Below the pieces are notes generated by a model. It made no database searches. It had not been told where the DNA came from and saw only the letters and a list, made by a program, of their open reading frames with translations. From a virus, in the IMG/VR virus record IMGVR_UViG_3300036761_003567, positions 32,001 through 96,000 of that record: a stretch of DNA of 64,000 bases; one strand, 5' to 3'. Of the stretch, positions 4,263 through 30,221 are shown piece by piece. Positions within the stretch are counted from its first letter, which is position 1. Each line of letters opens with the position of its first letter. The translations under genes and the position numbers were made by a program.

Positions 4263-5267
4263 ATGGAACGCCTAGGACTTGATATGGGGACGAAGAACAT
4301 CGTCCTCGCCTATAAGAAGGACGGGCAGGTCTGCTTCCGTCGAGAGGTCAACGGATTCATTTCCGTGGTCAAGCAGGATAACTTCACCAAGGAAATGCTC
4401 GTCCAGTCGCAGGTTCCCTTCATCGAGCGGGACAAGGACTTTATCGCCATCGGCAGCAAGGCGGAGGACCTGGCCTACTCGTTCGGTAAGGAGCTCCAGA
4501 GACCGATGGTCAATGGAGTGCTCTCGGTCACTGAGCGGCAGGCGATGTCCATCATGGGCGTCATCGTGAAGTCCATCATCGGGAAGCTCAACGACGACGC
4601 CATCCTGTGCTACTGCATCCCAGGCCTGGCTATCAACCAGGACGTGAACGTCGACTTCCACAACAAGGTCATCCAGGCGATCCTGGCGTCCTTCGACGTC
4701 AAGGTCAAGCTCAAGGGAAGCTCGATCAACGAGGCACGCGCCATCGTCATCGCCCGCTCGCCGGACAAGGACAAATCCGGGATCGGCATCTCTTGCGGCG
4801 CCGGGATGATCAACATTTGCTACTGCCTCTTCGGCATTCCGGTCTACGAGTTCTCAATCGTCGGGGCCGGCGACTGGATCGATAAGGAATCCGGCAAGGC
4901 AACGAACGAGAGCCCCACGGCCATCGCCAAGGTCAAGGAGTCGCCAGAGACGCGGCTGGATGGCGGGATGCCCGCGGACTTCGTCCGCAGGGCGATCTTC
5001 CTGAACTACACGATCCTCATCGAGAGGATCGCCAAGAGCATCGCCGAGGGCTTCCGCAAGAACGAAGGCAAGGCCAGGGCGCCGAAGCCCATGCCCATCT
5101 ACATCGCCGGCGGGACTGCCTCCGTCGGCGGCTTCCTCGCGCTCTTCAAGGAAGTCTTCACGAAGCAAGAGATGCCGTTCCAGGTCGGCGAGATCTCGCT
5201 CGTGGACAAGCCGCTCTACGCAGTCGCCGAGGGGTGCCTCATCGCAGCCGAGAAGCACGAGGGATGA
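4263..5267 (+). CDS. Actin-like ATPase (MreB/FtsA/Ta0583-type fold)
   Basis: Phosphate-1 GLDMGTKN, connect-1 NEARAIV, phosphate-2 ISCGAGM, adenosine IAGGTA, connect-2 PLYAVAEG; AGGAG before ATG 4263. Confidence 0.85.
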   Translation: MERLGLDMGTKNIVLAYKKDGQVCFRREVNGFISVVKQDNFTKEMLVQSQVPFIERDKDFIAIGSKAEDLAYSFGKELQRPMVNGVLSVTERQAMSIMGVIVKSIIGKLNDDAILCYCIPGLAINQDVNVDFHNKVIQAILASFDVKVKLKGSSINEARAIVIARSPDKDKSGIGISCGAGMINICYCLFGIPVYEFSIVGAGDWIDKESGKATNESPTAIAKVKESPETRLDGGMPADFVRRAIFLNYTILIERIAKSIAEGFRKNEGKARAPKPMPIYIAGGTASVGGFLALFKEVFTKQEMPFQVGEISLVDKPLYAVAEGCLIAAEKHEG

Positions 5268-15833: not shown

Positions 15834-16880
15834 ATGGCGAAAGAAAAAGATGAGTTCCAGGCCGAAGAGAAGGCGATCCAACATGCCTGGGATTCTGTCG
15901 AGAAGGACTTCGGCAAGGGTTCCGTCATGCACGGGCAGACGATCATCCGCGATATTGAGGCTATCCCGACGGGATCCCTTCGCCTGGACATCGCCCTCGG
16001 AATTGGGGGAGTTCCTCGTGGCCGTATCACGGAGATCTATGGTCCTGAGGCGTCAGGGAAGACGACACTCTGCATGGAAATTGTCAAGAACGTCCAAGCC
16101 AAAAAGGGCCGGGCAATGTTCGTTGACGTCGAGAACGCCTTCGACTCTGCCTATGCCAAGAGGATTAATTTAGACATGGACAAGCTCTACCTTTCCCAGC
16201 CAAACAGCGGCGAACAAGCCTTAACCATCGTCGAGAGGTTCGTAGCATCGAATGCCATGGACCTTATCGTCATCGATTCCGTCGCCGGCCTGGTCCCCCA
16301 GGCAGAATTGGAAGGCGACCTCATAGATAAGCAGATGGGCGCCCAGGCAGCCCTCATGTCAAAAGCCTTACGCAAGCTGGCGCCCATCGTAAACAAGACG
16401 AAGACCTGCGTCATTTTCACGAACCAGCTGCGAGAGAAGATCGGAGTCATGTTCGGAAATCCGGAGACGACATCCGGAGGCCGCGCTCTGAAATATTGGG
16501 CGTCTGTCCGGATCGAGATCAGGCGCCTTTCGACCGTCAAGGAAGGAGACGATGCCGTCGCCATCATCGTCCGCGCCAAGGTCCAGAAGAACAAGGTCGC
16601 CCCGCCGTTCCGCCAGGCCGAATTCAAACTCGTCTTCGGGAGAGGCATCCAAAGGGAAGCTTGCATTGCCGACATGGCGGAGCAGTGTGGTATCCTGAAG
16701 AGGGCCGGCGCCTGGATTTGCTTCAAGGACGAAAAGATTGGGAACGGCATAGATCAAGCTCTTAAATTCCTTGTAGAAAGGCCCGAGATAACAGCGGAAC
16801 TGGAGAACCTGGTCCGGGAGGAGATCCGGAAGAGGGACGTGATCATCAGCAAACCGGAGGAGGAAGCGCCGGAGGAATAA
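15834..16880 (+). CDS. recA: RecA recombinase
   Basis: IPTGSLRLDIALGIGG.PRGRITEIYGPEASGKTT, VIDSVA, NQLREKIGVMFGNPETTSGGRALK, KNKVAPPF. Confidence 0.98.
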   Translation: MAKEKDEFQAEEKAIQHAWDSVEKDFGKGSVMHGQTIIRDIEAIPTGSLRLDIALGIGGVPRGRITEIYGPEASGKTTLCMEIVKNVQAKKGRAMFVDVENAFDSAYAKRINLDMDKLYLSQPNSGEQALTIVERFVASNAMDLIVIDSVAGLVPQAELEGDLIDKQMGAQAALMSKALRKLAPIVNKTKTCVIFTNQLREKIGVMFGNPETTSGGRALKYWASVRIEIRRLSTVKEGDDAVAIIVRAKVQKNKVAPPFRQAEFKLVFGRGIQREACIADMAEQCGILKRAGAWICFKDEKIGNGIDQALKFLVERPEITAELENLVREEIRKRDVIISKPEEEAPEE

Positions 16881-16911
16881 AAGATACGCCAGGCCCAATA
16901 GGAGTCTGGCT

Positions 16912-17304
16912 ATGGCTATTGTCAGCGCATTCCGGATCGATGACGTCGTGTATCTAAGGTCCTCGGCGCAGATCGGCTTCCTGGAAGCCTACAAGATCAG
17001 CGGGATCTTCCAGCTCAGGAACGACCGGTATGTCTACACGATCGACATCAACAGGAGGCCGCCGTCCGCTCAGACGCTCGGCGACCATATTGACCTGAAG
17101 CGCATCCAGACGCTCTACTTCACGGAGGATGAGCTTCTGACGTTCTGCGAGGCCGAGACGCTTGTCGTGCAGAATCTCGAGAGAAGGCTGCGGGAGGAGA
17201 AGGCTCGGTTCGCTGCCAGATGTTCAGTTTCACCAGGATCGGGAAGCACCGGTCCGACTCCGCCTGGAAGCGGGAGCGCCGGATCAACTGGGAGTGCCCC
17301 ATGA
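16912..17304 (+). CDS. Hypothetical protein with Gly/Ser tail
   Basis: 130 aa; AGGAG SD. Confidence 0.6.
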   Translation: MAIVSAFRIDDVVYLRSSAQIGFLEAYKISGIFQLRNDRYVYTIDINRRPPSAQTLGDHIDLKRIQTLYFTEDELLTFCEAETLVVQNLERRLREEKARFAARCSVSPGSGSTGPTPPGSGSAGSTGSAP

Positions 17305-17750
17305 ACAGACGATCTCTTTTAAAAGCCCTCACACTCCTCCCATTTGCACCCCTGCTCGGACGCAAGACAGAAGCAGCCATTCCGAATGGAGAAGACGACC
17401 TAGCCTATTGGCGGCGCATTCCGAATGGAGAAGACGACCTAGCCTATTGGCGGCACAAAGTAGAGCATTGCGAATCGATTGGGGACCATAAGAAGGCAGA
17501 GCTTTACCGCAGGAGACTGCTGCTCGCCGAGGACGTCGCTCTAATCCACGACATCCAACGGGCCAGAAATGGTCGGAAATTCTCTATGCACGTGGAACGT
17601 GTTGGTCGGGAAACTCTTTGCGTCACGATTCCAGCCGACCTATCGCCCCAGGAGGCCGTGAAGTATCTCGATTCCATAAAGAGACACTTTCGAAAAGTTG
17701 GGTGTCGCAATGCACGACGAGGTCTGGCACAAGCATATCTATTTAGCTGA
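17301..17750 (+). CDS. Tat-signal protein carrying a T4 gp20 portal-like fragment
   Basis: MNRRSLLKALTLLPFAPLL; LAEDVALIH.IQRA..RKF...DLSPQEAVKYLDSIKRHFRK. Confidence 0.6.
   Translation: MNRRSLLKALTLLPFAPLLGRKTEAAIPNGEDDLAYWRRIPNGEDDLAYWRHKVEHCESIGDHKKAELYRRRLLLAEDVALIHDIQRARNGRKFSMHVERVGRETLCVTIPADLSPQEAVKYLDSIKRHFRKVGCRNARRGLAQAYLFS
17378..17454 (+). repeat. In-frame tandem duplication with 39-bp period
   Basis: CATTCCGAATGGAGAAGACGACCTAGCCTATTGGCGGC twice (IPNGEDDLAYWR). Confidence 0.95.
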
Positions 17751-17759
17751 ACAAAAAGA

Positions 17760-19172
17760 ATGTCAGACGAACAGACCCTTCACGATAAGGATTCTCGCAC
17801 GTTCGGCGAGAACGAAGAACAAGCCATCATAGCGCTAGCCTTCGACCTCCCGGAGTTTTTTAGCTCCGTCGTGCCCTACCTCCAGATCGATCACTTCAAG
17901 CACATCCCGTCCAAGTTCCTGTTCGCCATCATCAAGAAACTCATAGAGAAGCACCGGGTATCGCCGACCCGCGGCCTGGTAAAGGACATTGCCAGGAAGA
18001 ATCTCACGGTCGATGACGATTATGAGCCGATCATCTCCCTCATCGACAAGCAGTCTGATCCCCGGGAAGCTCCGGTTGTCAAGCAGTCCGTCGTCGAATT
18101 CGCCAAGCGTCGCGCCCTGGGACTCCTCTACTCCAAGGAAGTCATGGAGGAAGTCTCGCGCGGAAATTATGACCGCGTGAACGAGATCGTCGAATCAGCC
18201 AGGAAGATCACCGACGTCAGCCAGACGGGAATCTGGTTCTTCGAGCGCGCTCACGAGCTCTTCACGGTGGAGAATGAGATCAAGTTCACGACGGGCTTCC
18301 CGAAGCTGGATAGGTACATCAACGACGGCGGGCCTACGATAAGCGACGTCTTCGTCTGGATGGCTCCGACTAACGTCGGCAAGACTTACATGCTCTGCAA
18401 CACGGGCGAGGCTAACGTGCGGGCCGGGCACAACGTCGTACACTTCTCCTTCGAAGGAGACATCAAGAAGACCCAGGTCAGGTACGCCGGCGCATTCACC
18501 AATGTGCCGGTCGTCACGCATATGCATCGGATGGCGCACAAGGATCAGATCACGCAAATCCTGAGCCGATGCAAGGCCCATTATGGAGCGGAACTCGTCC
18601 TCTACAAGTTTCCTGCGGACGAGGTCAGCGTAGACACCCTCCATCAGGTCATGGACTTCCTGAGGCGGAACAAGGGCTTCAATCCGAGAGTCGTGATTAT
18701 CGACTACCTGGAACTCATGGTCTCGCGGAACAAGTTCATGAACCGGGACGATTACGCTAGACAGAAGTCCATCTCCACGGAGCTGTGCGGATTCGCCGAC
18801 AAGGAAAACGTGGCAGTCTTCACGGCGACGCAGACCAACCGGTACGGCATGAACGAGGAAGAGCAGTCCAGCAAGAAGACGGCCGGGACTGGCGGCGGGA
18901 AGTCAATCGACCTGGATAAGATCGCAGAGTCCTTCGGGAAATCTATGCCGCTTTCCTACGTCGTGAGTATCAATCAGACGAAGAACGAATACGAGGCCGG
19001 CTACGACGCGAGCCGGGCTGAAAACACAGCCGCCCGAGCGAGACTCTTCATCGCCAAGAATCGGAACGGTCCGAAGTCCGAGACAGTAGCTATCCGTATG
19101 AACTACGTCACCATGAAGGCCAAGGAGGACGAGCCGGCCGTCAACATTACGACGGTAGGCGGGAATTCCTAA
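17760..19172 (+). CDS. dnaB: Replicative helicase (DnaB/T4 gp41-like)
   Basis: TTGFPKLD, APTNVGKT, FSFE, IIDYLEL, TATQTNR, IAKNRNG. Confidence 0.93.
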   Translation: MSDEQTLHDKDSRTFGENEEQAIIALAFDLPEFFSSVVPYLQIDHFKHIPSKFLFAIIKKLIEKHRVSPTRGLVKDIARKNLTVDDDYEPIISLIDKQSDPREAPVVKQSVVEFAKRRALGLLYSKEVMEEVSRGNYDRVNEIVESARKITDVSQTGIWFFERAHELFTVENEIKFTTGFPKLDRYINDGGPTISDVFVWMAPTNVGKTYMLCNTGEANVRAGHNVVHFSFEGDIKKTQVRYAGAFTNVPVVTHMHRMAHKDQITQILSRCKAHYGAELVLYKFPADEVSVDTLHQVMDFLRRNKGFNPRVVIIDYLELMVSRNKFMNRDDYARQKSISTELCGFADKENVAVFTATQTNRYGMNEEEQSSKKTAGTGGGKSIDLDKIAESFGKSMPLSYVVSINQTKNEYEAGYDASRAENTAARARLFIAKNRNGPKSETVAIRMNYVTMKAKEDEPAVNITTVGGNS

Positions 19173-19531
19173 TGCCAACTTACAACTACATCTGCGAACA
19201 TCACAAGACGGAAGATAGTCAGGATTTCGTCTTCGAAGTCAATCACGGCATGAACCAGAAGCCGGAAGTCCTCTGTCCCCAGTGCAAGAAGCCCTGTAAG
19301 AGGACTTGGCTGGGGATGACGTTCCAGTTCTTCTTCCCTGGCAATGGGCTGGTCAGAGATAAGGCAGGCGCCAGGCGTAGTATGAACCTACACCAACTCG
19401 AGAACGACGACCCCTATGGTTATATGCGCCAGCCGGGCGAGAAAGCGGACTTGGTGGACAAGCTCCGAAAGGGCGGCAAGCACCAGGGACACCCGAAGGT
19501 CATCGCGACCCACGGGATCAAGAAGAAATGA
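19172..19531 (+). CDS. FmdB-family Zn-ribbon protein
   Basis: MPTYNYIC...FEV.H.M...CPQC. Confidence 0.75.
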   Translation: MPTYNYICEHHKTEDSQDFVFEVNHGMNQKPEVLCPQCKKPCKRTWLGMTFQFFFPGNGLVRDKAGARRSMNLHQLENDDPYGYMRQPGEKADLVDKLRKGGKHQGHPKVIATHGIKKK

Positions 19532-19854
19532 GCTACTGTGGAATGCGTTTTCCAGGGTCGCCAGGTCTACTTCAAATGAAAACGTGGTACAGCGCCATCT
19601 GTCGCAAATGTGGAGAGGGCGCGCAGATCTTCGTCTCAAATCCGAGCTGTACTATGGCCTACCTTGGAGAGAAGGATAAGGAGATTCAAGCCTTCCTAGA
19701 GAAGCACTTCGGATGTGAGCTCGAGCTCATCTGGCGGGATGACCAACTGGACGCACTCTTCAATTCGGGCTGGAAAGTCAGCATTCTCCCGGGCGTCTGC
19801 CGTTATTTCCGACCGGAAAGTATTTCATCTCCGTGTCCAAGCACGCCTTCGTAA
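19528..19854 (+). CDS. Hypothetical protein (start uncertain)
   Basis: CRKC...FLEKH.GC. Confidence 0.5.
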   Translation: MSYCGMRFPGSPGLLQMKTWYSAICRKCGEGAQIFVSNPSCTMAYLGEKDKEIQAFLEKHFGCELELIWRDDQLDALFNSGWKVSILPGVCRYFRPESISSPCPSTPS

Positions 19855-21017
19855 TGTGTCAGTACACGAAGCAGTCCTCTCGTCCGCTCATGGCTGCCTT
19901 CATGGACGACGGGAGTGATGCCGTCAGATCGTACCCCCTGCTTCTCTCTGGCGTCGGTCTCAGCTTGAAGACGGTCTGGGAGAGCGCAAAGGCCATCCTT
20001 GGAGAATTCAAAGGGAGTCCTCTTCCCGCCGTAACGATGAACGACTTCAAAACGGTCCTTGATTTCCTGGACCGCGAATGCAACCTACTGGCGCATCCGT
20101 TTAACGTCTGGGATTTTGGCATCCCGAAGCAGCCGAATTACGGCACGCTGTCCGCCGAGAGGGCAAGGGAGATCTGCGAGAAGCTCGTCCGCGGCGTTGC
20201 CAGCATCCAGCCCACCCCCTGGATGAAGCTGCTTGGAAGAGCCACGCAAGTCTACCACATGCTCCAAAAGCGCGGTCTCATGAATGGCCATCTTCTTACC
20301 TATCCTCGGTATGTCCTCAACACGGTCAGTGGCCGGTCGAAGACGCTGGGTTTCAACGTCCAGGGGACGGACGCATCCTATGACGTGAAGCACCCCGATG
20401 AAGAAAAATCCTATTTCATCCATCTGGACTGGATCTCAGCAGACCTTAAGGCTGGCCAGATCCTGAGCGGGGACGAGCTCCTTGCTGAAGCCTTCAGGAA
20501 GTCCGATCCCTACACCGTCATGGCGAAGGGAGACCTGACCCGGGCAGATTGCAAGGGCATGATGATCCGTGCGCTCTATGAAATGGATCAAGATAGTCCA
20601 GCCCTTCAGTTCTGGCCAGACCTTCAAAAATGGGTCGCGGTCGAAAAAGCCAAGTTGGAAGACAGAGGCTGGACGGAGTCCGTTCTGGGTAGAAGGTTCA
20701 GAATGGCCACAGAAGGCGATCCTCTCCACAATATGAGGAGCGTATTTAACGCCTCGCTCCAGGGGACGGTAGTGCACGCCATGCACAACGCCCTCTGGCA
20801 GATTTACAAAGTGATGCCTGATTGTATCGTGGCGGAGATGCACGACTCGATTACTCTGGCAGCGAACAGGCATGCGATTAAGGAAGTTCTGAATGTCGGC
20901 GTCGAAGCCATGCTCCATCCGTTCAAGGACATACTAGATAGCAATCCGACGTTTCCGCTTCGGATTTACGTCGGCCGTCATTGGAAGAAGTGGAAGCTTT
21001 ACAAGGAAATCCGATGA
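19833..21017 (+). CDS. polA: Compact family A DNA polymerase (no recognisable exonuclease domains)
   Basis: TVSGRS..NVQ, motif A HLDWISADLK, motif B R.DCK...LY, FNASLQGT, motif C MHDS. Confidence 0.8.
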   Translation: MSKHAFVMCQYTKQSSRPLMAAFMDDGSDAVRSYPLLLSGVGLSLKTVWESAKAILGEFKGSPLPAVTMNDFKTVLDFLDRECNLLAHPFNVWDFGIPKQPNYGTLSAERAREICEKLVRGVASIQPTPWMKLLGRATQVYHMLQKRGLMNGHLLTYPRYVLNTVSGRSKTLGFNVQGTDASYDVKHPDEEKSYFIHLDWISADLKAGQILSGDELLAEAFRKSDPYTVMAKGDLTRADCKGMMIRALYEMDQDSPALQFWPDLQKWVAVEKAKLEDRGWTESVLGRRFRMATEGDPLHNMRSVFNASLQGTVVHAMHNALWQIYKVMPDCIVAEMHDSITLAANRHAIKEVLNVGVEAMLHPFKDILDSNPTFPLRIYVGRHWKKWKLYKEIR

Positions 21018-21514
21018 CAGCCCCCAAGAACAAATGGTTTGCCGACAATATTCCTGAGGACGTTGCGAATATCGTCGTCCGCATCCACGTTAAGGTGCCA
21101 GGTGGCGGCACCATCTCTCGAGACTTTAGGACTGATGTAGAAATAGACTACGACAATCTCGAAGAGCAGCTCGCAAGGACACCAAGCGCGTTTTCTTATT
21201 GGGCCGGAGTCATGAGCGAGCAGAAGATGGTGGTCGGCGTATTCGAGCGCAAGATAAAGAGACGCAGAGCCATAGTCGCAGAACAGATCCTTAATACAGC
21301 CAAGGCAGAAGGCGTTTCCCTGCGTGCCGCAGACATAAAGGAACTCATTGAGGCAGATGACATTCTGGAGAAGCTGGAAGCGGAGCTCCTGATCGCGCAG
21401 AGGTCCTCTGGCAAGCTTTACAACATCGTAGAAGCGATAAAGATGAAGTCTGAACATTTGCGGTCATTGGCGGGCTTTAAGAGACAAGAACTCAGGGACG
21501 CCGGAAGCGTGTAG
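21014..21514 (+). CDS. UvsY-like recombination mediator
   Basis: IDYDNLEEQL..TP...YW, coiled coil, EAIKMKSEHLRSL; lies next to the SSB. Confidence 0.65.
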   Translation: MTAPKNKWFADNIPEDVANIVVRIHVKVPGGGTISRDFRTDVEIDYDNLEEQLARTPSAFSYWAGVMSEQKMVVGVFERKIKRRRAIVAEQILNTAKAEGVSLRAADIKELIEADDILEKLEAELLIAQRSSGKLYNIVEAIKMKSEHLRSLAGFKRQELRDAGSV

Positions 21515-21550
21515 GCCGTATTTCACGGAGAACCATTAAAGGAGGAAGTC

Positions 21551-22627
21551 ATGACAGTGATCCGGGAGAACGAGGACATTGCGCGAATCCGCAAGCTGAT
21601 GCAGGACAAGAAGGGCGGCGGCCAGAAGGATCCGAATGAGTTCCGGTTCCCCAAGGCCAAGGAAAACGAGACGCTCACTTACTACATCAAGTTTCTACCG
21701 CCCGTTCCGAGCATGGGCGACCTCTGGTTCTACATGAACGGCAGCCACTTCATCGACAACAAGCGGCTGGAATGCCCGCGCATCCACGACCAGGGAGCGG
21801 AATGCCCGCTCTGTCAGTTCGGCTTCCAGCTGATGGACGGGATGGACAAGGAGCAGAAGAGCAAGATTGCCAAGACATACCTCGCCAGGAGCTACTACGG
21901 CGTCAACATCTACTTTCCACAGTCCACCAACGTGCAGGAAGATCTCCGCGGCAAGGTCTTCTGGGCCAACATCCCGAAGACGCTCTACGACAAATGCGAG
22001 GAATGCATCCTGCGGGACGACGCAGGAAGCGAGGATGATCCCGCGCCGTTCGGCCTGTTCTACAGCGAAAAGGCCGGATACGTCATGAAGGTCGTCATCA
22101 AGAGCAAGGGCGGCTACAACAACTACGAAGAGTCCAAGTTCCTGGTCACGACCAAGGGGCCTCTGTCCAAGGACGAGGCCAAAGTCAAGGAGATCCTGTC
22201 CAGGCGGCATGATGTGCCTACGAAATTCGTTGCACGCGATCTGGCGGCGCTCCAGGCGAAGGTGGACCAGATCCTGAAGAAACCGTCGACCGTCACGGCG
22301 GGAGACGATGCCGGCTTCCACGAGGATCACACGGAAGAACAGCCCGTGGCAGCCAAGTCTGCGCCGGCCGCAAAGCCCGCGGCAGCCAAACCTGCCCCAG
22401 CAGCAGCCAAGTCTGCGCCGGCCGCAAAGCCCGCGGCAGTCAAACCTGCTCCTCCTGCGGAGGAATTCCAGGACGAGGTTACGGAGGAAGCTCCTGCCAA
22501 GCCATCGGCTAAGACAGCGGCCGCAAAAGCTGCGCCTGCGCCGGAGCCCGAGGAGTCTCCGGCAGATGGTGGGCCCATCGCGGACGCGGAAATCGACAGC
22601 CTACTGAAGGAAATCAAGGACGAGTAG
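21551..22627 (+). CDS. T4 gp32-like single-stranded DNA-binding protein
   Basis: IKFLPP, H...CP...CPLC, GGYNNYEESKF, Ala/Pro/Lys linker with a 54-bp-period duplication, acidic tail. Confidence 0.85.
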   Translation: MTVIRENEDIARIRKLMQDKKGGGQKDPNEFRFPKAKENETLTYYIKFLPPVPSMGDLWFYMNGSHFIDNKRLECPRIHDQGAECPLCQFGFQLMDGMDKEQKSKIAKTYLARSYYGVNIYFPQSTNVQEDLRGKVFWANIPKTLYDKCEECILRDDAGSEDDPAPFGLFYSEKAGYVMKVVIKSKGGYNNYEESKFLVTTKGPLSKDEAKVKEILSRRHDVPTKFVARDLAALQAKVDQILKKPSTVTAGDDAGFHEDHTEEQPVAAKSAPAAKPAAAKPAPAAAKSAPAAKPAAVKPAPPAEEFQDEVTEEAPAKPSAKTAAAKAAPAPEPEESPADGGPIADAEIDSLLKEIKDE

Positions 22628-22652
22628 CCGGTTCTGCTAAAGCGTAATCGGA

Positions 22653-22683
22653 GGCGGGCGCGGGACACCGCGCCCGTTTCTTT
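22653..22683 (+). terminator. Intrinsic terminator-like hairpin
   Basis: CGGGCGCGG-GACA-CCGCGCCCG followed by TTTCTTT. Confidence 0.65.
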
Positions 22684-23535
22684 ATGAAGCACCTCCTGGT
22701 AGACGGCCGCAACTCGATCTACCGCGCCATGTTCGCGGGAATGGCGGACCCTGCCTTCCGAAAGTCCGGGTTCCACACCATCATCATCTTCGTTCGGTTC
22801 CTCCACCACTACCTCCGCACGTTCAGGCCATCAGAGATCCACGTATTCTGGGATGACAAGCCAGAAAACCTCTGGCGCCGGAAATTCTTCCCGGCTTACA
22901 AGGCACAAAGAAAGGCGGAGCGCGACAAGAGGAACGCCTTTGACGTCGATAAAGTCATGGCAGATTGCGTCAATGTTGCCATGGCGATCATACCGGAAAT
23001 GGGCATCCGGATGTACTTCCGTGAGACACAGGAAGCGGACGACCTAATTTACGCGTTCATTCAGACCCTGCAGGACAAGGAGTCCGCGACGATAGTCTCC
23101 AGCGATAGCGATTTCGTACAGCTCGAGAAGGGAAATGTTCATGTCTTCAATCCGATGCACACTGGACACCGGAAGGAATATAGATATCCTCTCTTAATGA
23201 AGTGCATGATGGGCGACAAGGCCGACAACATTCCCGGCTATGTCGGCATAGGTCCCAAGAGGGCTGCGAAGCTCTGTGAGAATGATGGTGAAATGAAGGC
23301 CTTCCTGAAGACCAGGGGCATCAAGACGCTCGTCGATAATAGGTTCCTCATCGATATGTCGAAGTGCCCGTTCGTTGAGGACAATGTCAAGTACGTCAAG
23401 GCTATAAGATCCTCACGCCCTGTCTTCAACGGGCCTGCCATAGAGACGGCAGCAATGCGGCTCAAGATCCGGGGTCTCATAGGGGAATTCCATAGATTCG
23501 TCCTCCCATTCAAAAATCTAACCAGGATAAGTTAA
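22684..23535 (+). CDS. 5'-3' exonuclease/flap endonuclease (T4 RNase H-like)
   Basis: LLVDGRN..YR, YKAQR, EADD, SSDSDF.QL, GDKADNIPG..GIGPKRA. Confidence 0.93.
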   Translation: MKHLLVDGRNSIYRAMFAGMADPAFRKSGFHTIIIFVRFLHHYLRTFRPSEIHVFWDDKPENLWRRKFFPAYKAQRKAERDKRNAFDVDKVMADCVNVAMAIIPEMGIRMYFRETQEADDLIYAFIQTLQDKESATIVSSDSDFVQLEKGNVHVFNPMHTGHRKEYRYPLLMKCMMGDKADNIPGYVGIGPKRAAKLCENDGEMKAFLKTRGIKTLVDNRFLIDMSKCPFVEDNVKYVKAIRSSRPVFNGPAIETAAMRLKIRGLIGEFHRFVLPFKNLTRIS

Positions 23536-26238: not shown

Positions 26239-28158
26239 ATGCCCCTCATCGAATTTGTCAATCCGAACCAGCATAGCGTACACTTGATGGGTCCGGACAA
26301 GAAGGTCATCGTCGTAGGCGGCAAGCAGAAGGTCGTCCTCCAGGATTGGTTTTCCAGGTATGCGCCCAACTTCATCCGACCGGTCCGCGGAGTAGAAAGG
26401 GATTCCATCTCCGTAATCAATCCCAATACGCGTCCGCAAGTCCAAGTCGCACGTGCCACCCGACCCAAGATCCCCACTGGCATAAAAGGAATTCGAGTAG
26501 AATATGCGAATCGTGCGATCAAGGTATTGAATGAGCGGCATGGCCATCCGCGCCAGCCAGTAAACATTAGGAACCATGGTCCTATCGTCGGAAAGACGAC
26601 CTTTCACGGGGAGGTCGCGACAAAGTATTTCCAGATGATCATTCCGTCTTTCAGAATTTGCCTTTCCAACGACATTGGCGTCGGCATCTTAAGTTACAAC
26701 AGGCTCGGATCCATCCAGCGACTTCTGGCGTCTATTGCGGCTCACACGAACCTCCAGAGAACAACCGTCTTCGTCAGCGATGAGTCATCCCAGCCGGAAG
26801 TGAAGCAATGGCTGCGGACCGTCGACTGGATCGTCCTTTTGGACAATCAGGAACGTCTTGGGGTTGCAGGGAATACAAATCGCCTCATCCAATGCCTAGA
26901 TAGGTTCAGACATAAGGTCATCCTCAATGACGACGTCGAGATCCTGGCCAATGGTTGGGAGCAGTTTTATCCGGTGGCTACGGCCGAATCCGGGATCCAT
27001 CATTTCTGCTTCAGACAGCTTGGCGTCTATGGCGCAGCAAAGACTGGCGTCGTAGAAACCAGAATCAAGGGCAGGCTCATCAAGTCGGTCCATGATAAGC
27101 CGCAGGGCGCCGTGATAGCCTACGACGATGCCGCGGCCAGGGCCGTCGGCTTCATGGACGAGTCTATGGGGCTCTATGGAATGGAGCACGTCGACTGGTC
27201 CAATCGCATATCCCTTTCCGGCATCCAGCCGCGAGGGTTCCACGACGTGGAGGGCTCGGAGCAGTTCTTCAAGCTCCATAATGAGTCTTCCGCCGTCGAG
27301 GGCAGGGTTCAGCTGCTGCTCAAGGCGCGAGAGCTCTGGGAAAGCGTAAAGACAAATCCTGCTCGAATTCACGTCCAGCGCACGCCGCGTTCAGACGTAC
27401 CGAGCGTAAGCTGCGTCATTCCCTGCCGCGGTTTGGAAAGACAGAAGTCTGTCGATGCGGTCATCGCCTGTATCAAGGGCCAGAACTTCCCCGCCGTAGA
27501 GATCCTGGTCGTCGAGCAGGACGAGACGGAGAAGATCCGCCTGAGCCAGTTCGCTCGGAAGTTATTCATCAGGGCACCACGCGAACAGCCTTTCTGCAAG
27601 GCAGTCGCCTTCAACAAAGGCGTAGCAGAGACGAAGCATCTACAGCTGGTCCTGCAGGACGGGGACATTATCTTCCATAGGGATTATCTTAGAAAGCTCA
27701 TGGGCGTGCTGAAAGGGCAGCAAGGAGCCCACATCGGCAAGGAAGTTATCTACATGGACAGCGCTAGCACGAGTGAGATTATTTCCCAATTCAGAATCAG
27801 CGAGAGCCTGAAGTCGAGCCAGGTCGTCGGTTATTTCGAGGGAGGCTCTCTGGCCTGCACAAAGCAGGCGTACTTCGCCTGCGGCGGGTTCCTAGAGGAG
27901 TTCATCGGCTACGGATGTGAAGACTGCGACTTTTTCAATAGGCTCAAGAACCTCGGAAAGTTCTTCGACGTGCGGACGGAGGCCTTCATCCATCTAGATC
28001 ATGGTCGCCCGCCGGGATGGAAGGAAATTCACGCGAAGAATAAGAAGCTCTTCGCCAATCTCAAGGTCGGGCATGACATGACCCAATTGTCGGGATATTG
28101 TCGCGGAAAGCTGCGTACTGCCGGGTACGGCCCCCTCATGGATAGCCTGGGCATTTAG
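26239..28158 (+). CDS. Double-domain family 2 glycosyltransferase
   Basis: GILSYNR..LNDD..YGMEH; second domain VIPCR..VVEQD..PFCK..FN.G..LQDGD..GYGCED. Confidence 0.88.
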   Translation: MPLIEFVNPNQHSVHLMGPDKKVIVVGGKQKVVLQDWFSRYAPNFIRPVRGVERDSISVINPNTRPQVQVARATRPKIPTGIKGIRVEYANRAIKVLNERHGHPRQPVNIRNHGPIVGKTTFHGEVATKYFQMIIPSFRICLSNDIGVGILSYNRLGSIQRLLASIAAHTNLQRTTVFVSDESSQPEVKQWLRTVDWIVLLDNQERLGVAGNTNRLIQCLDRFRHKVILNDDVEILANGWEQFYPVATAESGIHHFCFRQLGVYGAAKTGVVETRIKGRLIKSVHDKPQGAVIAYDDAAARAVGFMDESMGLYGMEHVDWSNRISLSGIQPRGFHDVEGSEQFFKLHNESSAVEGRVQLLLKARELWESVKTNPARIHVQRTPRSDVPSVSCVIPCRGLERQKSVDAVIACIKGQNFPAVEILVVEQDETEKIRLSQFARKLFIRAPREQPFCKAVAFNKGVAETKHLQLVLQDGDIIFHRDYLRKLMGVLKGQQGAHIGKEVIYMDSASTSEIISQFRISESLKSSQVVGYFEGGSLACTKQAYFACGGFLEEFIGYGCEDCDFFNRLKNLGKFFDVRTEAFIHLDHGRPPGWKEIHAKNKKLFANLKVGHDMTQLSGYCRGKLRTAGYGPLMDSLGI

Positions 28159-29227
28159 ATTGATGTGCTCGGAGCATTCTTTTAAATTCAATTAACGCGT
28201 GATAGCTCCGAGCCAAATTGACCCACACGCATACCAATTGGATGTTATCCTTTAGATAGCCAGTCGAATTCTCTATCCTGTCGATGCTACAGGAATTTAG
28301 ATGACCTCCCTGGAGTCTCATCGGCACTTTCGTGATAGCGCATCGTCCTTTTTGACTCTTATAAAGATCACATAAGAAATCGAGCGTTAAGTTATGGTTA
28401 AAACCCTTTCGTCTTTTGAATATTTTGCTATGAATACGTTGTCTTATTACTCGGAATAAATGTCTGAAGTATGTTCTGATTTTGGTATCATTGGTATTGT
28501 ATTCCCGACCGCCGCCATTTCTAAACTGTTTTAGTGTTTCTCTAAATTCTCTGGCCGTATGTCTTCGACGGCCCAAATTTACCCATTTGCATACCAGTCT
28601 AATATTTCCTTTGTTATACCCCATATTGTTATCGATGCGGTCAATAGATACTGAAAGAAGATGTCTAAAGCAGTGTGTCATTTTAATGCCGGTGGCTTTA
28701 CATCTTCCATTTTGACGTTCCCATAGCTGCATTAGGTATTCAATGCCAAAATCGCAAGGTTTTCGTAGCCTTGCCAGAGCGGATCTGAGGAAGTTTTCCG
28801 GAGTGCTCTCTCTGTGCTGTTTTATGGAGTCGTTGTGCTGCCGTCGCCTAGCCGGGCTACTTTGCCTTTCTCTACTTTCTAGTCTTTTCTTTAATTTCCT
28901 ACACTCATAACAAATATTCTTGCGTTTTGGTCTGAAGCGGGATAACTCGGTAGTGCCACATACGTTGCACCTTGGGGTAAGATTAGTTTGGCTTCTTGAT
29001 AAATGTTCCCTTGCGCGGCACCCACAATGTGGCGGGTATGATTTTGCCACATAATTCACTTCTGATATGCACTTTACGCATTTATTACCACATTCGCAGT
29101 AGAATTTATAGAAAACGCGCTTTGGTTCATGTTGCATATGAAAAGGGCGACTCACCACTTTTAGATGGCCGACGATAGTACCTATCTTTAGTCGCCGATG
29201 CTGCGAATCTATTGGCAAAAAGTACAT
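28136..29227 (-). mobile_element. Homing endonuclease-like gene with two HNH-type domains
   Basis: AT-rich and antisense; two Q.GRC..T...M...SIDRI.N..GY...N..LVC.WVN units; CECG and CNVC Zn sites. Confidence 0.75.
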
Positions 29228-29234
29228 AGATGAT

Positions 29235-30221
29235 ATGCGCGTGCTATTACCACATAGACCCGGGGGCGCTTTCAGCTTCATATCAGATGGATGGCTCAAT
29301 GCCTTCATTGCCACGGGTCACCAAGCGCAACGCTGGGACGGCAAACAAAGCTCCTGGAATATATTTGATCCGGATCTGATAATCGCATGTTCTGGCCACC
29401 GCCAACCCATACCCGCACCGCGCGGCAGAACAAAATTGGCCGTCCATGTGAACCCTTACGGGCCAGAAAAAATTAAAGGCATTGATGAGCCACAGGAGGC
29501 TATAAACTGGACTCTCGCGCAACGGCCAGATGCCGTATTCGGATACGGCCACAAAGACGACGGGAGATTCTGGGAGTATTGGACTTCAAAACATGGCATC
29601 CCTTGGGTGCCGATGGCTACGGCCGGGGATGCCACTGTCTTCTACTCCAGGCAAGGTCTAACAAACGCCCCGGTGCCGCGCGACATCCCCATAGGGTACG
29701 TTGGCGGTCGCTGGGATTACAAGGCCAAGAATTTGGACAGATATCTGTTTCCCCTTTTCTCAAACAAGACGCTTGGCTGTAAGGTCCATGGCTGGGGCGG
29801 TTGGCAGCCCGGGATCAGCTCTGGTGTCATTCGGGACGAGGACGTGGCTGGTTTCTTTTCGAGATGCCGAGTCTGCCCCTGCGTTGCCGAACCCCATACC
29901 ACACAATGGGGTATAGACTTGCCGGAGCGCGTATTCAAGGTTATCCTCTGTGGCGCCCTGGCTATCCACGATCCTGTAAAGGGCCTGGAACGATTCTCGA
30001 CGAACATCGTCATGGCCAATGGCCCGATGGAATTCATAGAGCTCTGTGTCAAATGGTCCAGACCGGAGATGGAACCACAGCGGCAGGAACTCGCCCGGAA
30101 ACAGCGAAGGGACATATTAAACGGACACACTTACTTCCACAGGCTGGCAGGACTGCTGAGGACAGTAGGATTTGCAGGGGAGGCGGATAAGATGCTCGAG
30201 CACGCCAAATCAATAGTCTAA
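29235..30221 (+). CDS. CgeB-like glycosyltransferase (GT-B)
   Basis: IGYVGG, ERVFK..LCG, HTYFHRL. Confidence 0.8.
   Translation: MRVLLPHRPGGAFSFISDGWLNAFIATGHQAQRWDGKQSSWNIFDPDLIIACSGHRQPIPAPRGRTKLAVHVNPYGPEKIKGIDEPQEAINWTLAQRPDAVFGYGHKDDGRFWEYWTSKHGIPWVPMATAGDATVFYSRQGLTNAPVPRDIPIGYVGGRWDYKAKNLDRYLFPLFSNKTLGCKVHGWGGWQPGISSGVIRDEDVAGFFSRCRVCPCVAEPHTTQWGIDLPERVFKVILCGALAIHDPVKGLERFSTNIVMANGPMEFIELCVKWSRPEMEPQRQELARKQRRDILNGHTYFHRLAGLLRTVGFAGEADKMLEHAKSIV

Follow-up and report, generated by a model that had tools for sequence, protein, structure and literature searches.

The DNA analysed here (64,000 nucleotides, referred to below as the window) is taken from an IMG/VR virus record of 107 kb (its bases 32001-96000). 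The CheckV completeness of 29% implies a jumbo phage, and the gene described below comes from an uncultured jumbo myophage. Encoded on the record are a tail sheath, SbcC, an enzyme of the PurZ type and a helicase with a LAGLIDADG insert. No cognate portal or large terminase was found in the record, which covers about 29% of the genome. The genes of interest in the window are ordered recA, orf130, a 149-aa ORF and dnaB, with a partial family-A polymerase nearby (Table 1). The start codon of the 149-aa ORF overlaps the stop codon of orf130 as ATGA, and its product joins an N-terminal peptide with an arginine pair to a segment that resembles part of the portal protein of T4-type phages.

The neighbouring genes have features of their own. 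The product of orf130 (the homologue in the relative L007 lies at 4654-4995 of that contig) has a beta-rich N-terminus followed by a helix; the copy in the window carries an extra Gly/Ser/Pro-rich tail that ends at the ATGA overlap. Searches of orf130 gave no Pfam match, no PHROG match and no similarity to T4 gp40. The polymerase gene is a 394-aa ORF (19833-21017) that matches only the C-terminal part of family-A DNA polymerases, short of the Pfam cut-off. The gene has the look of a PolA that has been split or reduced, and its form is the same in L007. Elsewhere in the window, a 392-aa ORF on the minus strand (28136-29314) has both endonuclease VII-like and HNH endonuclease matches. The LAGLIDADG homing-endonuclease-like segment, which may be an intein, interrupts a 958-aa helicase (G000:C1 26096-28972; L009 6096-8972), and the ORF at G000:C1 14501-15820 (L008) matches the PHROG of PurZ-type adenylosuccinate synthetase homologues (E 7e-35).

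Table 1. Features of the recA-dnaB region, in window coordinates.
Feature	Position	Strand	Remarks
recA, bacterial-type RecA	15834..16880	+	PF00154, E 1.9e-111
orf130, 130 aa, in the interval from recA to the cassette	16912..17304	+	conserved, no family; homologue in L007
Shine-Dalgarno-like GGGAG, 6 nt upstream of ATG	17290..17294	+	L004 has AAGGAG at the equivalent site
Mobile cassette, ~490 bp	17300..17791	+	shared with L004/L005; missing from relative L007
Chimeric small-protein ORF, 149 aa (P0001)	17301..17750	+	starts MNRRSLLK; frame kept in homologues P0002-P0005
N-terminal RR-type signal or anchor peptide, residues 1-26	17301..17378	+	best-conserved part of the family
Perfect 39-bp tandem duplication (13 aa x2), linker and first helix	17378..17454	+	period 39, 2.0 copies, 100% match
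Portal-like segment, residues ~62-142	17484..17726	+	gp20 stem helix alpha5, first clip strand, clip helix alpha6
12-residue insertion relative to portals, residues 98-109	17592..17627	+	predicted second strand of a beta-hairpin
DnaB-like replicative helicase	17760..19172	+	PF03796 and phrog_19, E 2e-56

The family to which the 149-aa protein (P0001) belongs is tiny. A search of 5.8 billion clusters and 1.8 billion representatives returned four homologues, which gives five members in all, every one of them metagenomic; no further member was found in the genome contigs, in four jumbo or T4-like phage records or in the record of L007, and the ORF has no match in Pfam, PHROGs or NCBIfam. Members differ most visibly in the linker that follows the N-terminal peptide. 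The first-pass annotation of this DNA had reported a recent 13-aa duplication at this point, and the nucleotide sequence bears it out as a perfect two-copy repeat. The duplication is missing from P0002 (74% identical to P0001) and from P0003; at the same site P0004 has its own, independent and older duplication of about 19 aa, and P0005 (37% identical to P0001) has a Pro-rich insert, so that the length of the linker has changed in three independent events across the family. The same 39-bp duplication is present in an independent contig, L002, which is 93% identical to the window overall and 100% identical over 17250-18000; the duplication is therefore not an assembly artefact. Three simple identities for the protein were set aside: an i-spanin (given the shortness of the hydrophobic stretch and the lack of a lipoprotein partner), a DNA-binding protein (the pI of the mature part spans 6.0 to 9.7) and a protein with a clamp-binding motif (there is no glutamine).

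Comparison with related contigs shows that the gene is accessory, mobile and fast-evolving. In L007, whose DnaB is 69% identical to that of the window, recA, an orf130 homologue and dnaB are all present with nothing between the latter two, which supports the view that the 149-aa ORF was inserted. The insertion between recA and the helicase that had been read from the window is thus upheld, although recA is not the immediate neighbour: orf130 also lies between recA and the gene. In L004 and L005, which carry P0002, the gene sits among unrelated small genes, in a context that differs from that in the window. The homology of these contigs to the window begins precisely at the start codon and stops 32 nt inside dnaB, which means that 8 codons from the start of the helicase gene are carried along; at this same right-hand boundary, homology between the dnaB genes of the window and L007 resumes. 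The matching boundaries in the two comparisons define a cassette unit of about 490 bp. The first ~11 codons of the helicase are wholly different between the window (17760-17795) and L007 (4995-5030); since these codons travel with the cassette, the cassette supplies dnaB with a new start. No promoter or terminator was found flanking it. Whole-gene dN/dS against P0002 is 0.69, a value based on small counts.

Two further observations concern exchange of DNA at and around the locus. About 1 kb downstream of the relocated cassette, L004 has an HNH-type endonuclease ORF (1619-1939), which may be relevant to cassette movement. Between the window (15861-22753) and L002, recA is only 74-84% identical, while both 17250-18000 and 18450-20100 are 100% identical; mosaic identity of this kind with a co-occurring variant indicates recent recombination tracts.

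The N-terminal peptide is conserved out of proportion to the rest of the protein: P0001 and P0005 agree at 17 of 22 residues there, against 37% identity for the whole protein. All five members start with MNRRS, the arginine pair (residues 3-4) is invariant, and NRRSLLK at residues 2-8 fits the twin-arginine context (Z-R-R-x-hydrophobic-hydrophobic-K). The uncharged stretch after the arginines measures 12, 12, 12, 15 and 16 residues in the five members, where the criterion for Tat is 13 or more; it contains LLPF.(P/S)L, an unusually conserved core with two prolines. A basic pair (RK or KRK) follows the uncharged stretch in all members, and then an AxA-like site in four of the five. Against P0002, dN/dS is 0.41 in the peptide, with much synonymous change, versus 0.84 in the remainder, so the N-terminus is conserved at the protein level, through purifying selection.

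The peptide had earlier been called a twin-arginine signal, and of that call the arginine pair and the hydrophobic stretch are indeed present. The full assignment is plausible but unproven. It is favoured by the fact that this is the only site in the record resembling a Tat signal: the PF10518 (TAT_signal) model, aligned over the full length of the model, matches the peptide and nothing else in the six frames of the 107-kb record, and the 149-aa ORF is the only one among 161 ORFs of the record with an N-terminal arginine pair plus hydrophobic stretch. The PF10518 match is nonetheless below the cut-off (14.9 bits versus 22.7), and TIGR01409 gave no match to the peptide. An alternative is that the N-terminus serves as an uncleaved membrane anchor, as the short core, the two conserved prolines, the flanking basic residues and the variable, tether-like linker would suggest.

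If the peptide directs export, the protein could be a periplasmic or envelope accessory factor, for example one for superinfection exclusion, and its portal-like segment (described below) would be a mark of ancestry only, a recycled scaffold. The RRSLLK start, the weakly hydrophobic h-region, the basic c-region and the AxA site of most members do resemble a signal peptide; the gene also behaves as a moron-type cassette, and the corresponding early region of T4 houses the periplasmic sp and imm. We consider this unlikely, in that a recycled scaffold leaves unexplained why the positions of the portal motif are kept even in the divergent P0005, whose helix is more gp20-like than that of P0001, and no envelope-related family or fold was found for the protein.

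Beyond the linker, the protein resembles the stem and clip of portals, and the resemblance grows as the portal profile becomes more diverse. In hhalign comparisons, the family matched gp20 alone with a probability of 24% (P 8e-4), a profile of 40 close gp20 relatives with 49% (P 1.8e-4), and a diverse Portal_T4 profile with 92-93% (P 3.4e-7 to 5.3e-7, score 52-53). The diverse profile consists of the 40 close relatives and nine divergent Portal_T4 members (Vibrio, Ochrobactrum, cyanophage, phiM12, Kuttervirus, Campylobacter and two huge phages), and its use raised the score from 36 to 52. The alignment pairs residues 43-142 of the query with gp20 residues 231-320 and has one 12-residue insertion; against the same profile, P0004 alone reached 87% and P0005 alone 70%. 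Scores of the controls with this profile were much lower: 100 column shuffles gave a mean of 14.9 and a maximum of 28.4, the reversed query gave 14.1, and 238 decoy ORFs of the record, run forward and reversed, gave a maximum of 24.9. When any one divergent portal was left out, the probability stayed at 88-92.5%, and the result was also robust to alignment options. The largest drops came on removing the two huge-phage portals, and the likeness is therefore closest to portals of that kind. HMM searches agreed in both directions: an HMM of gp20 residues 225-330 scored the five members at 19.6, 14.8, 13.1, 10.3 and 10.0 bits, with 320 decoys at 4.1 bits or less, and a reverse search with the family HMM ranked 15 portals first. 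The gp20-like segment proposed in the first-pass annotation is borne out by these comparisons, since profile similarity to portals is found by hhalign and by HMMER both ways, and the portal motif that it had given is indeed carried by the T4 gp20 sequence.

Other searches gave no sign of a portal. The curated Pfam Portal_T4 model (PF07230) had no match at E<=10 for four members, nor in the six frames of the record; BLASTP against T4 gp20 did not report the likeness; and the hits of a PDB profile search were VanA (E 0.004), bacterioferritin and TTC29, with portals absent. The aligned stretch is about 80 residues long, with about 20% identity and the insertion just mentioned, and the gp20 residues that contact gp17 (N291, M292, R295 and K296) align with D, L, Q and E. 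Taken together, these comparisons make portal homology of the segment very likely but remote. The opposite explanation, that a helix-strand-helix motif arose by chance or convergence in a weakly constrained orphan ORF, would fit the silence of Pfam, BLASTP, Foldseek and VIA-align on portals, the existence of weak matches of similar size (to VanA, to bacterioferritin and to a TPR repeat protein) and the dN/dS near 0.8 in the mature part. It is highly improbable, however, in view of the rise in hhalign score with a more diverse portal profile, the concordance of all five members and of both search directions, the distance of the empirical nulls below the real score, and the loss of the VanA-like residues in P0005. 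As identities for the protein itself, two of the competing matches were rejected. A VanA/Ddl ligase is contradicted by the silence of PF07478, by a VanA-model score of 14.9 bits where the cut-off is 775, and by P0005, which has not kept the motif. For a TPR repeat, suggested by P0006 (a 1440-aa CHAT/TPR protein), the signal came from one 26-column motif counted 8 times, with an hhalign probability of 6%; Pfam TPR models had no match to the family.

In the T4 portal, the stem helix alpha5 comprises residues 255-278 and the clip residues 279-358, and the clip, which lies outside the capsid, is the attachment site of the terminase gp17 and the neck protein gp13 (PMC4493910). The aligned region spans alpha5 and the clip from residue 279, residues 288-311 included. 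Two AlphaFold2 models were made: the first had a pLDDT of 52, and the second, of residues 40-149, a pLDDT of 72. The second model has a helical hairpin, a beta-hairpin and a helix where the gp20 equivalent has a helix, a strand and a helix; its second helix, first strand and last helix coincide with alpha5, the first clip strand and alpha6 of gp20. The remaining elements of the model, its first helix and the inserted strand, resemble additions by which the piece would be able to fold on its own. Structure comparisons returned no portal. Foldseek (the PDB, searched twice, and BFVD) found nothing below E 0.1 and matched generic helical hairpins only; VIA-align listed no portal, and its matches cover the helical hairpin only; an ESM Atlas feature search gave no usable match. 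An ESM Atlas structure search with the low-confidence model found only small alpha/beta domains at a TM of about 0.5 (SpoIIIAH, PrgH, secretin N and the CDF C-terminal domain).

The anatomy of the gene, its portal homology at the profile level and its accessory, mobile status are observations, and on their basis we tentatively propose that the protein mimics the portal clip, is directed to the membrane and titrates a protein that recognises the clip. As to its location at the membrane, its binding activity and the identity of its partner, we infer the following. The cassette gene would be co-transcribed within the recA-dnaB replication block, and its product would be a chimera of three parts: first, a twin-arginine-type peptide that directs it to the membrane, either through Tat export or as an uncleaved anchor; second, the linker of variable length; and third, a self-folding mini-domain derived from the stem helix and clip of a portal. 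The mini-domain would derive from the surface that protrudes from the capsid, the one that terminase and neck proteins recognise. Displayed early in infection, such a clip-like surface would capture a protein whose usual target is the portal clip, and retain it at the membrane. The candidates for this partner are an immune receptor that senses portals and a terminase or neck protein, whether of the same phage or of a competitor. Several points weigh against this proposal. Curated Pfam Portal_T4, BLASTP and the PDB profile search are silent; the portal alignment is short, of low identity and interrupted by an insertion; the residues through which gp20 contacts gp17 are replaced; and the family has only its five metagenomic members. 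In addition, a working Tat signal that is cleaved would put the domain in the periplasm, away from the known clip-binding proteins.

The immune-receptor option can be stated more narrowly. The STAND NTPases Avs4 and Avs11 sense portals (bioRxiv 10.64898/2026.01.04.697583), and Tat can co-export bound partners, according to the hitchhiker reference in PMC13673990; the first-pass annotation had given both points as background, the first for Avs-type systems in general, and both are correct. The protein could thus be a decoy: having bound such a sensor in the cytoplasm, it would use its Tat signal either to hold the sensor at the translocon or to remove it by hitchhiker export. The portal-like segment, the portal sensing by Avs4 and Avs11, the precedent of Tat hitchhiking, the early-type operon placement and the fast evolution of the gene all accord with this. 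So does the apparent openness of an anti-Avs niche, going by a compendium of 268 anti-defence proteins in which only a DNA ligase and a DprA-like protein are named as anti-Avs. The decoy is still decidedly unlikely, because Avs proteins are very large for Tat cargo and because the Tat assignment is below threshold. Equally doubtful is the fuller version, in which the phage would have excised the exposed stem-clip piece of its own portal, made it self-folding and joined it to the twin-arginine peptide, and would use it as an early decoy to catch Avs4- or Avs11-type receptors at the membrane or the Tat translocon before the real portal is made. The sequence evidence is compatible with a decoy for Avs sensors and does not single it out.

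A different role in the phage's own assembly is suggested by gene order. In T4, the slot between uvsX and gene 41 is occupied by gene 40, whose product is annotated as a membrane-associated initiator of head vertex assembly. The protein might be the functional counterpart of that product, serving as an initiator or chaperone that is anchored in the inner membrane and, on its cytoplasmic face, seeds the portal ring of the phage itself or tethers it there. The slot between recombinase and helicase is the same, and assembly of the T4 portal occurs on the inner membrane (PMC4493910). On this reading the N-terminus would be a monotopic anchor and not an export signal, in keeping with a short hydrophobic core (12-16 aa) that has two conserved prolines and basic residues on both sides, and a linker of variable length is what a tether might have. 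This is very unlikely, though. The gp40 family (PF11113) has no similarity to the present family or to portals, the gene is missing in L007 and located elsewhere in L004, and dN/dS is high for an assembly factor. Homology to gp40 as such was rejected, with an hhalign probability below 1% for both a single sequence and a 9-sequence profile.

Returning to the clip mimic, its interest lies in what portals are to both sides of an infection: conserved proteins by which bacterial pattern-recognition receptors detect phages, and proteins whose clip docks the packaging motor and the neck. A natural, free-standing and membrane-directed copy of a piece of the clip would be a new kind of mimic, and it could reveal either a way for phages to escape the sensing of proteins that are not free to change or a way to disturb the packaging of a competitor. 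If the protein were in fact an Avs decoy, it would be the first case of an anti-defence decoy made from part of a virion protein. There is also a practical side, in that fragments of virion proteins reported away from the structural module can prove real, and the one described here emerged only with a diverse profile.

Phage molecular mimics directed against defence include DNA mimics such as Ocr. Like Ocr and the anti-Avs proteins ORF55 and ORF83, the cassette gene is small, accessory, fast-evolving and located in an early region; it differs from the known anti-Avs proteins, one of them a DNA ligase and the other DprA-like, and mimics made from part of a virion protein do not figure in the compendium of 268 anti-defence proteins. 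Tat substrates and the small subunits that serve as carriers for hitchhikers (PF10518) share with the protein an N-R-R-S-L-L-K start, a weakly hydrophobic h-region, a basic c-region and an AxA-like site. They differ in that the match here falls short of the model's cut-off, three members have an h-region of only 12 residues, the core is unusually conserved, and the context is not that of a cofactor enzyme.

The resemblance to T4 gp40 (PF11113) is one of position and general character: both genes lie between a recombinase and a replicative helicase (uvsX-40-41 in T4; recA-orf130-ORF-dnaB here), and both products are small, portal-linked and membrane-associated, the last by prediction in the present case. 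There is no detectable sequence similarity between them, and gp40 lacks the RR peptide. With T4 gp20-type portals (PF07230), the protein shares the most conserved block, of the type LLEDA..IYR..RAP.RR.F..DVG.LP..A..Y, which comprises alpha5 and the first clip strand and helix. It retains only about 80 of some 520 residues, however, and since the wing, crown, tunnel loop and second stem helix are absent, the 149-aa protein cannot form a channel. It also differs from these portals in its extra 12-residue strand, in its N-terminal RR peptide and in being encoded in a replication block rather than a head module. Another parallel is the gp20 peptide 288-311, which by itself binds gp17 and blocks packaging (as cited in PMC4493910). 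That peptide is an experimental fragment and not a natural gene, and the contact residues are different here; what the two have in common is that an isolated clip fragment suffices, in the case of the peptide, for binding a partner, and that the equivalent helix is present in the protein encoded by the cassette.
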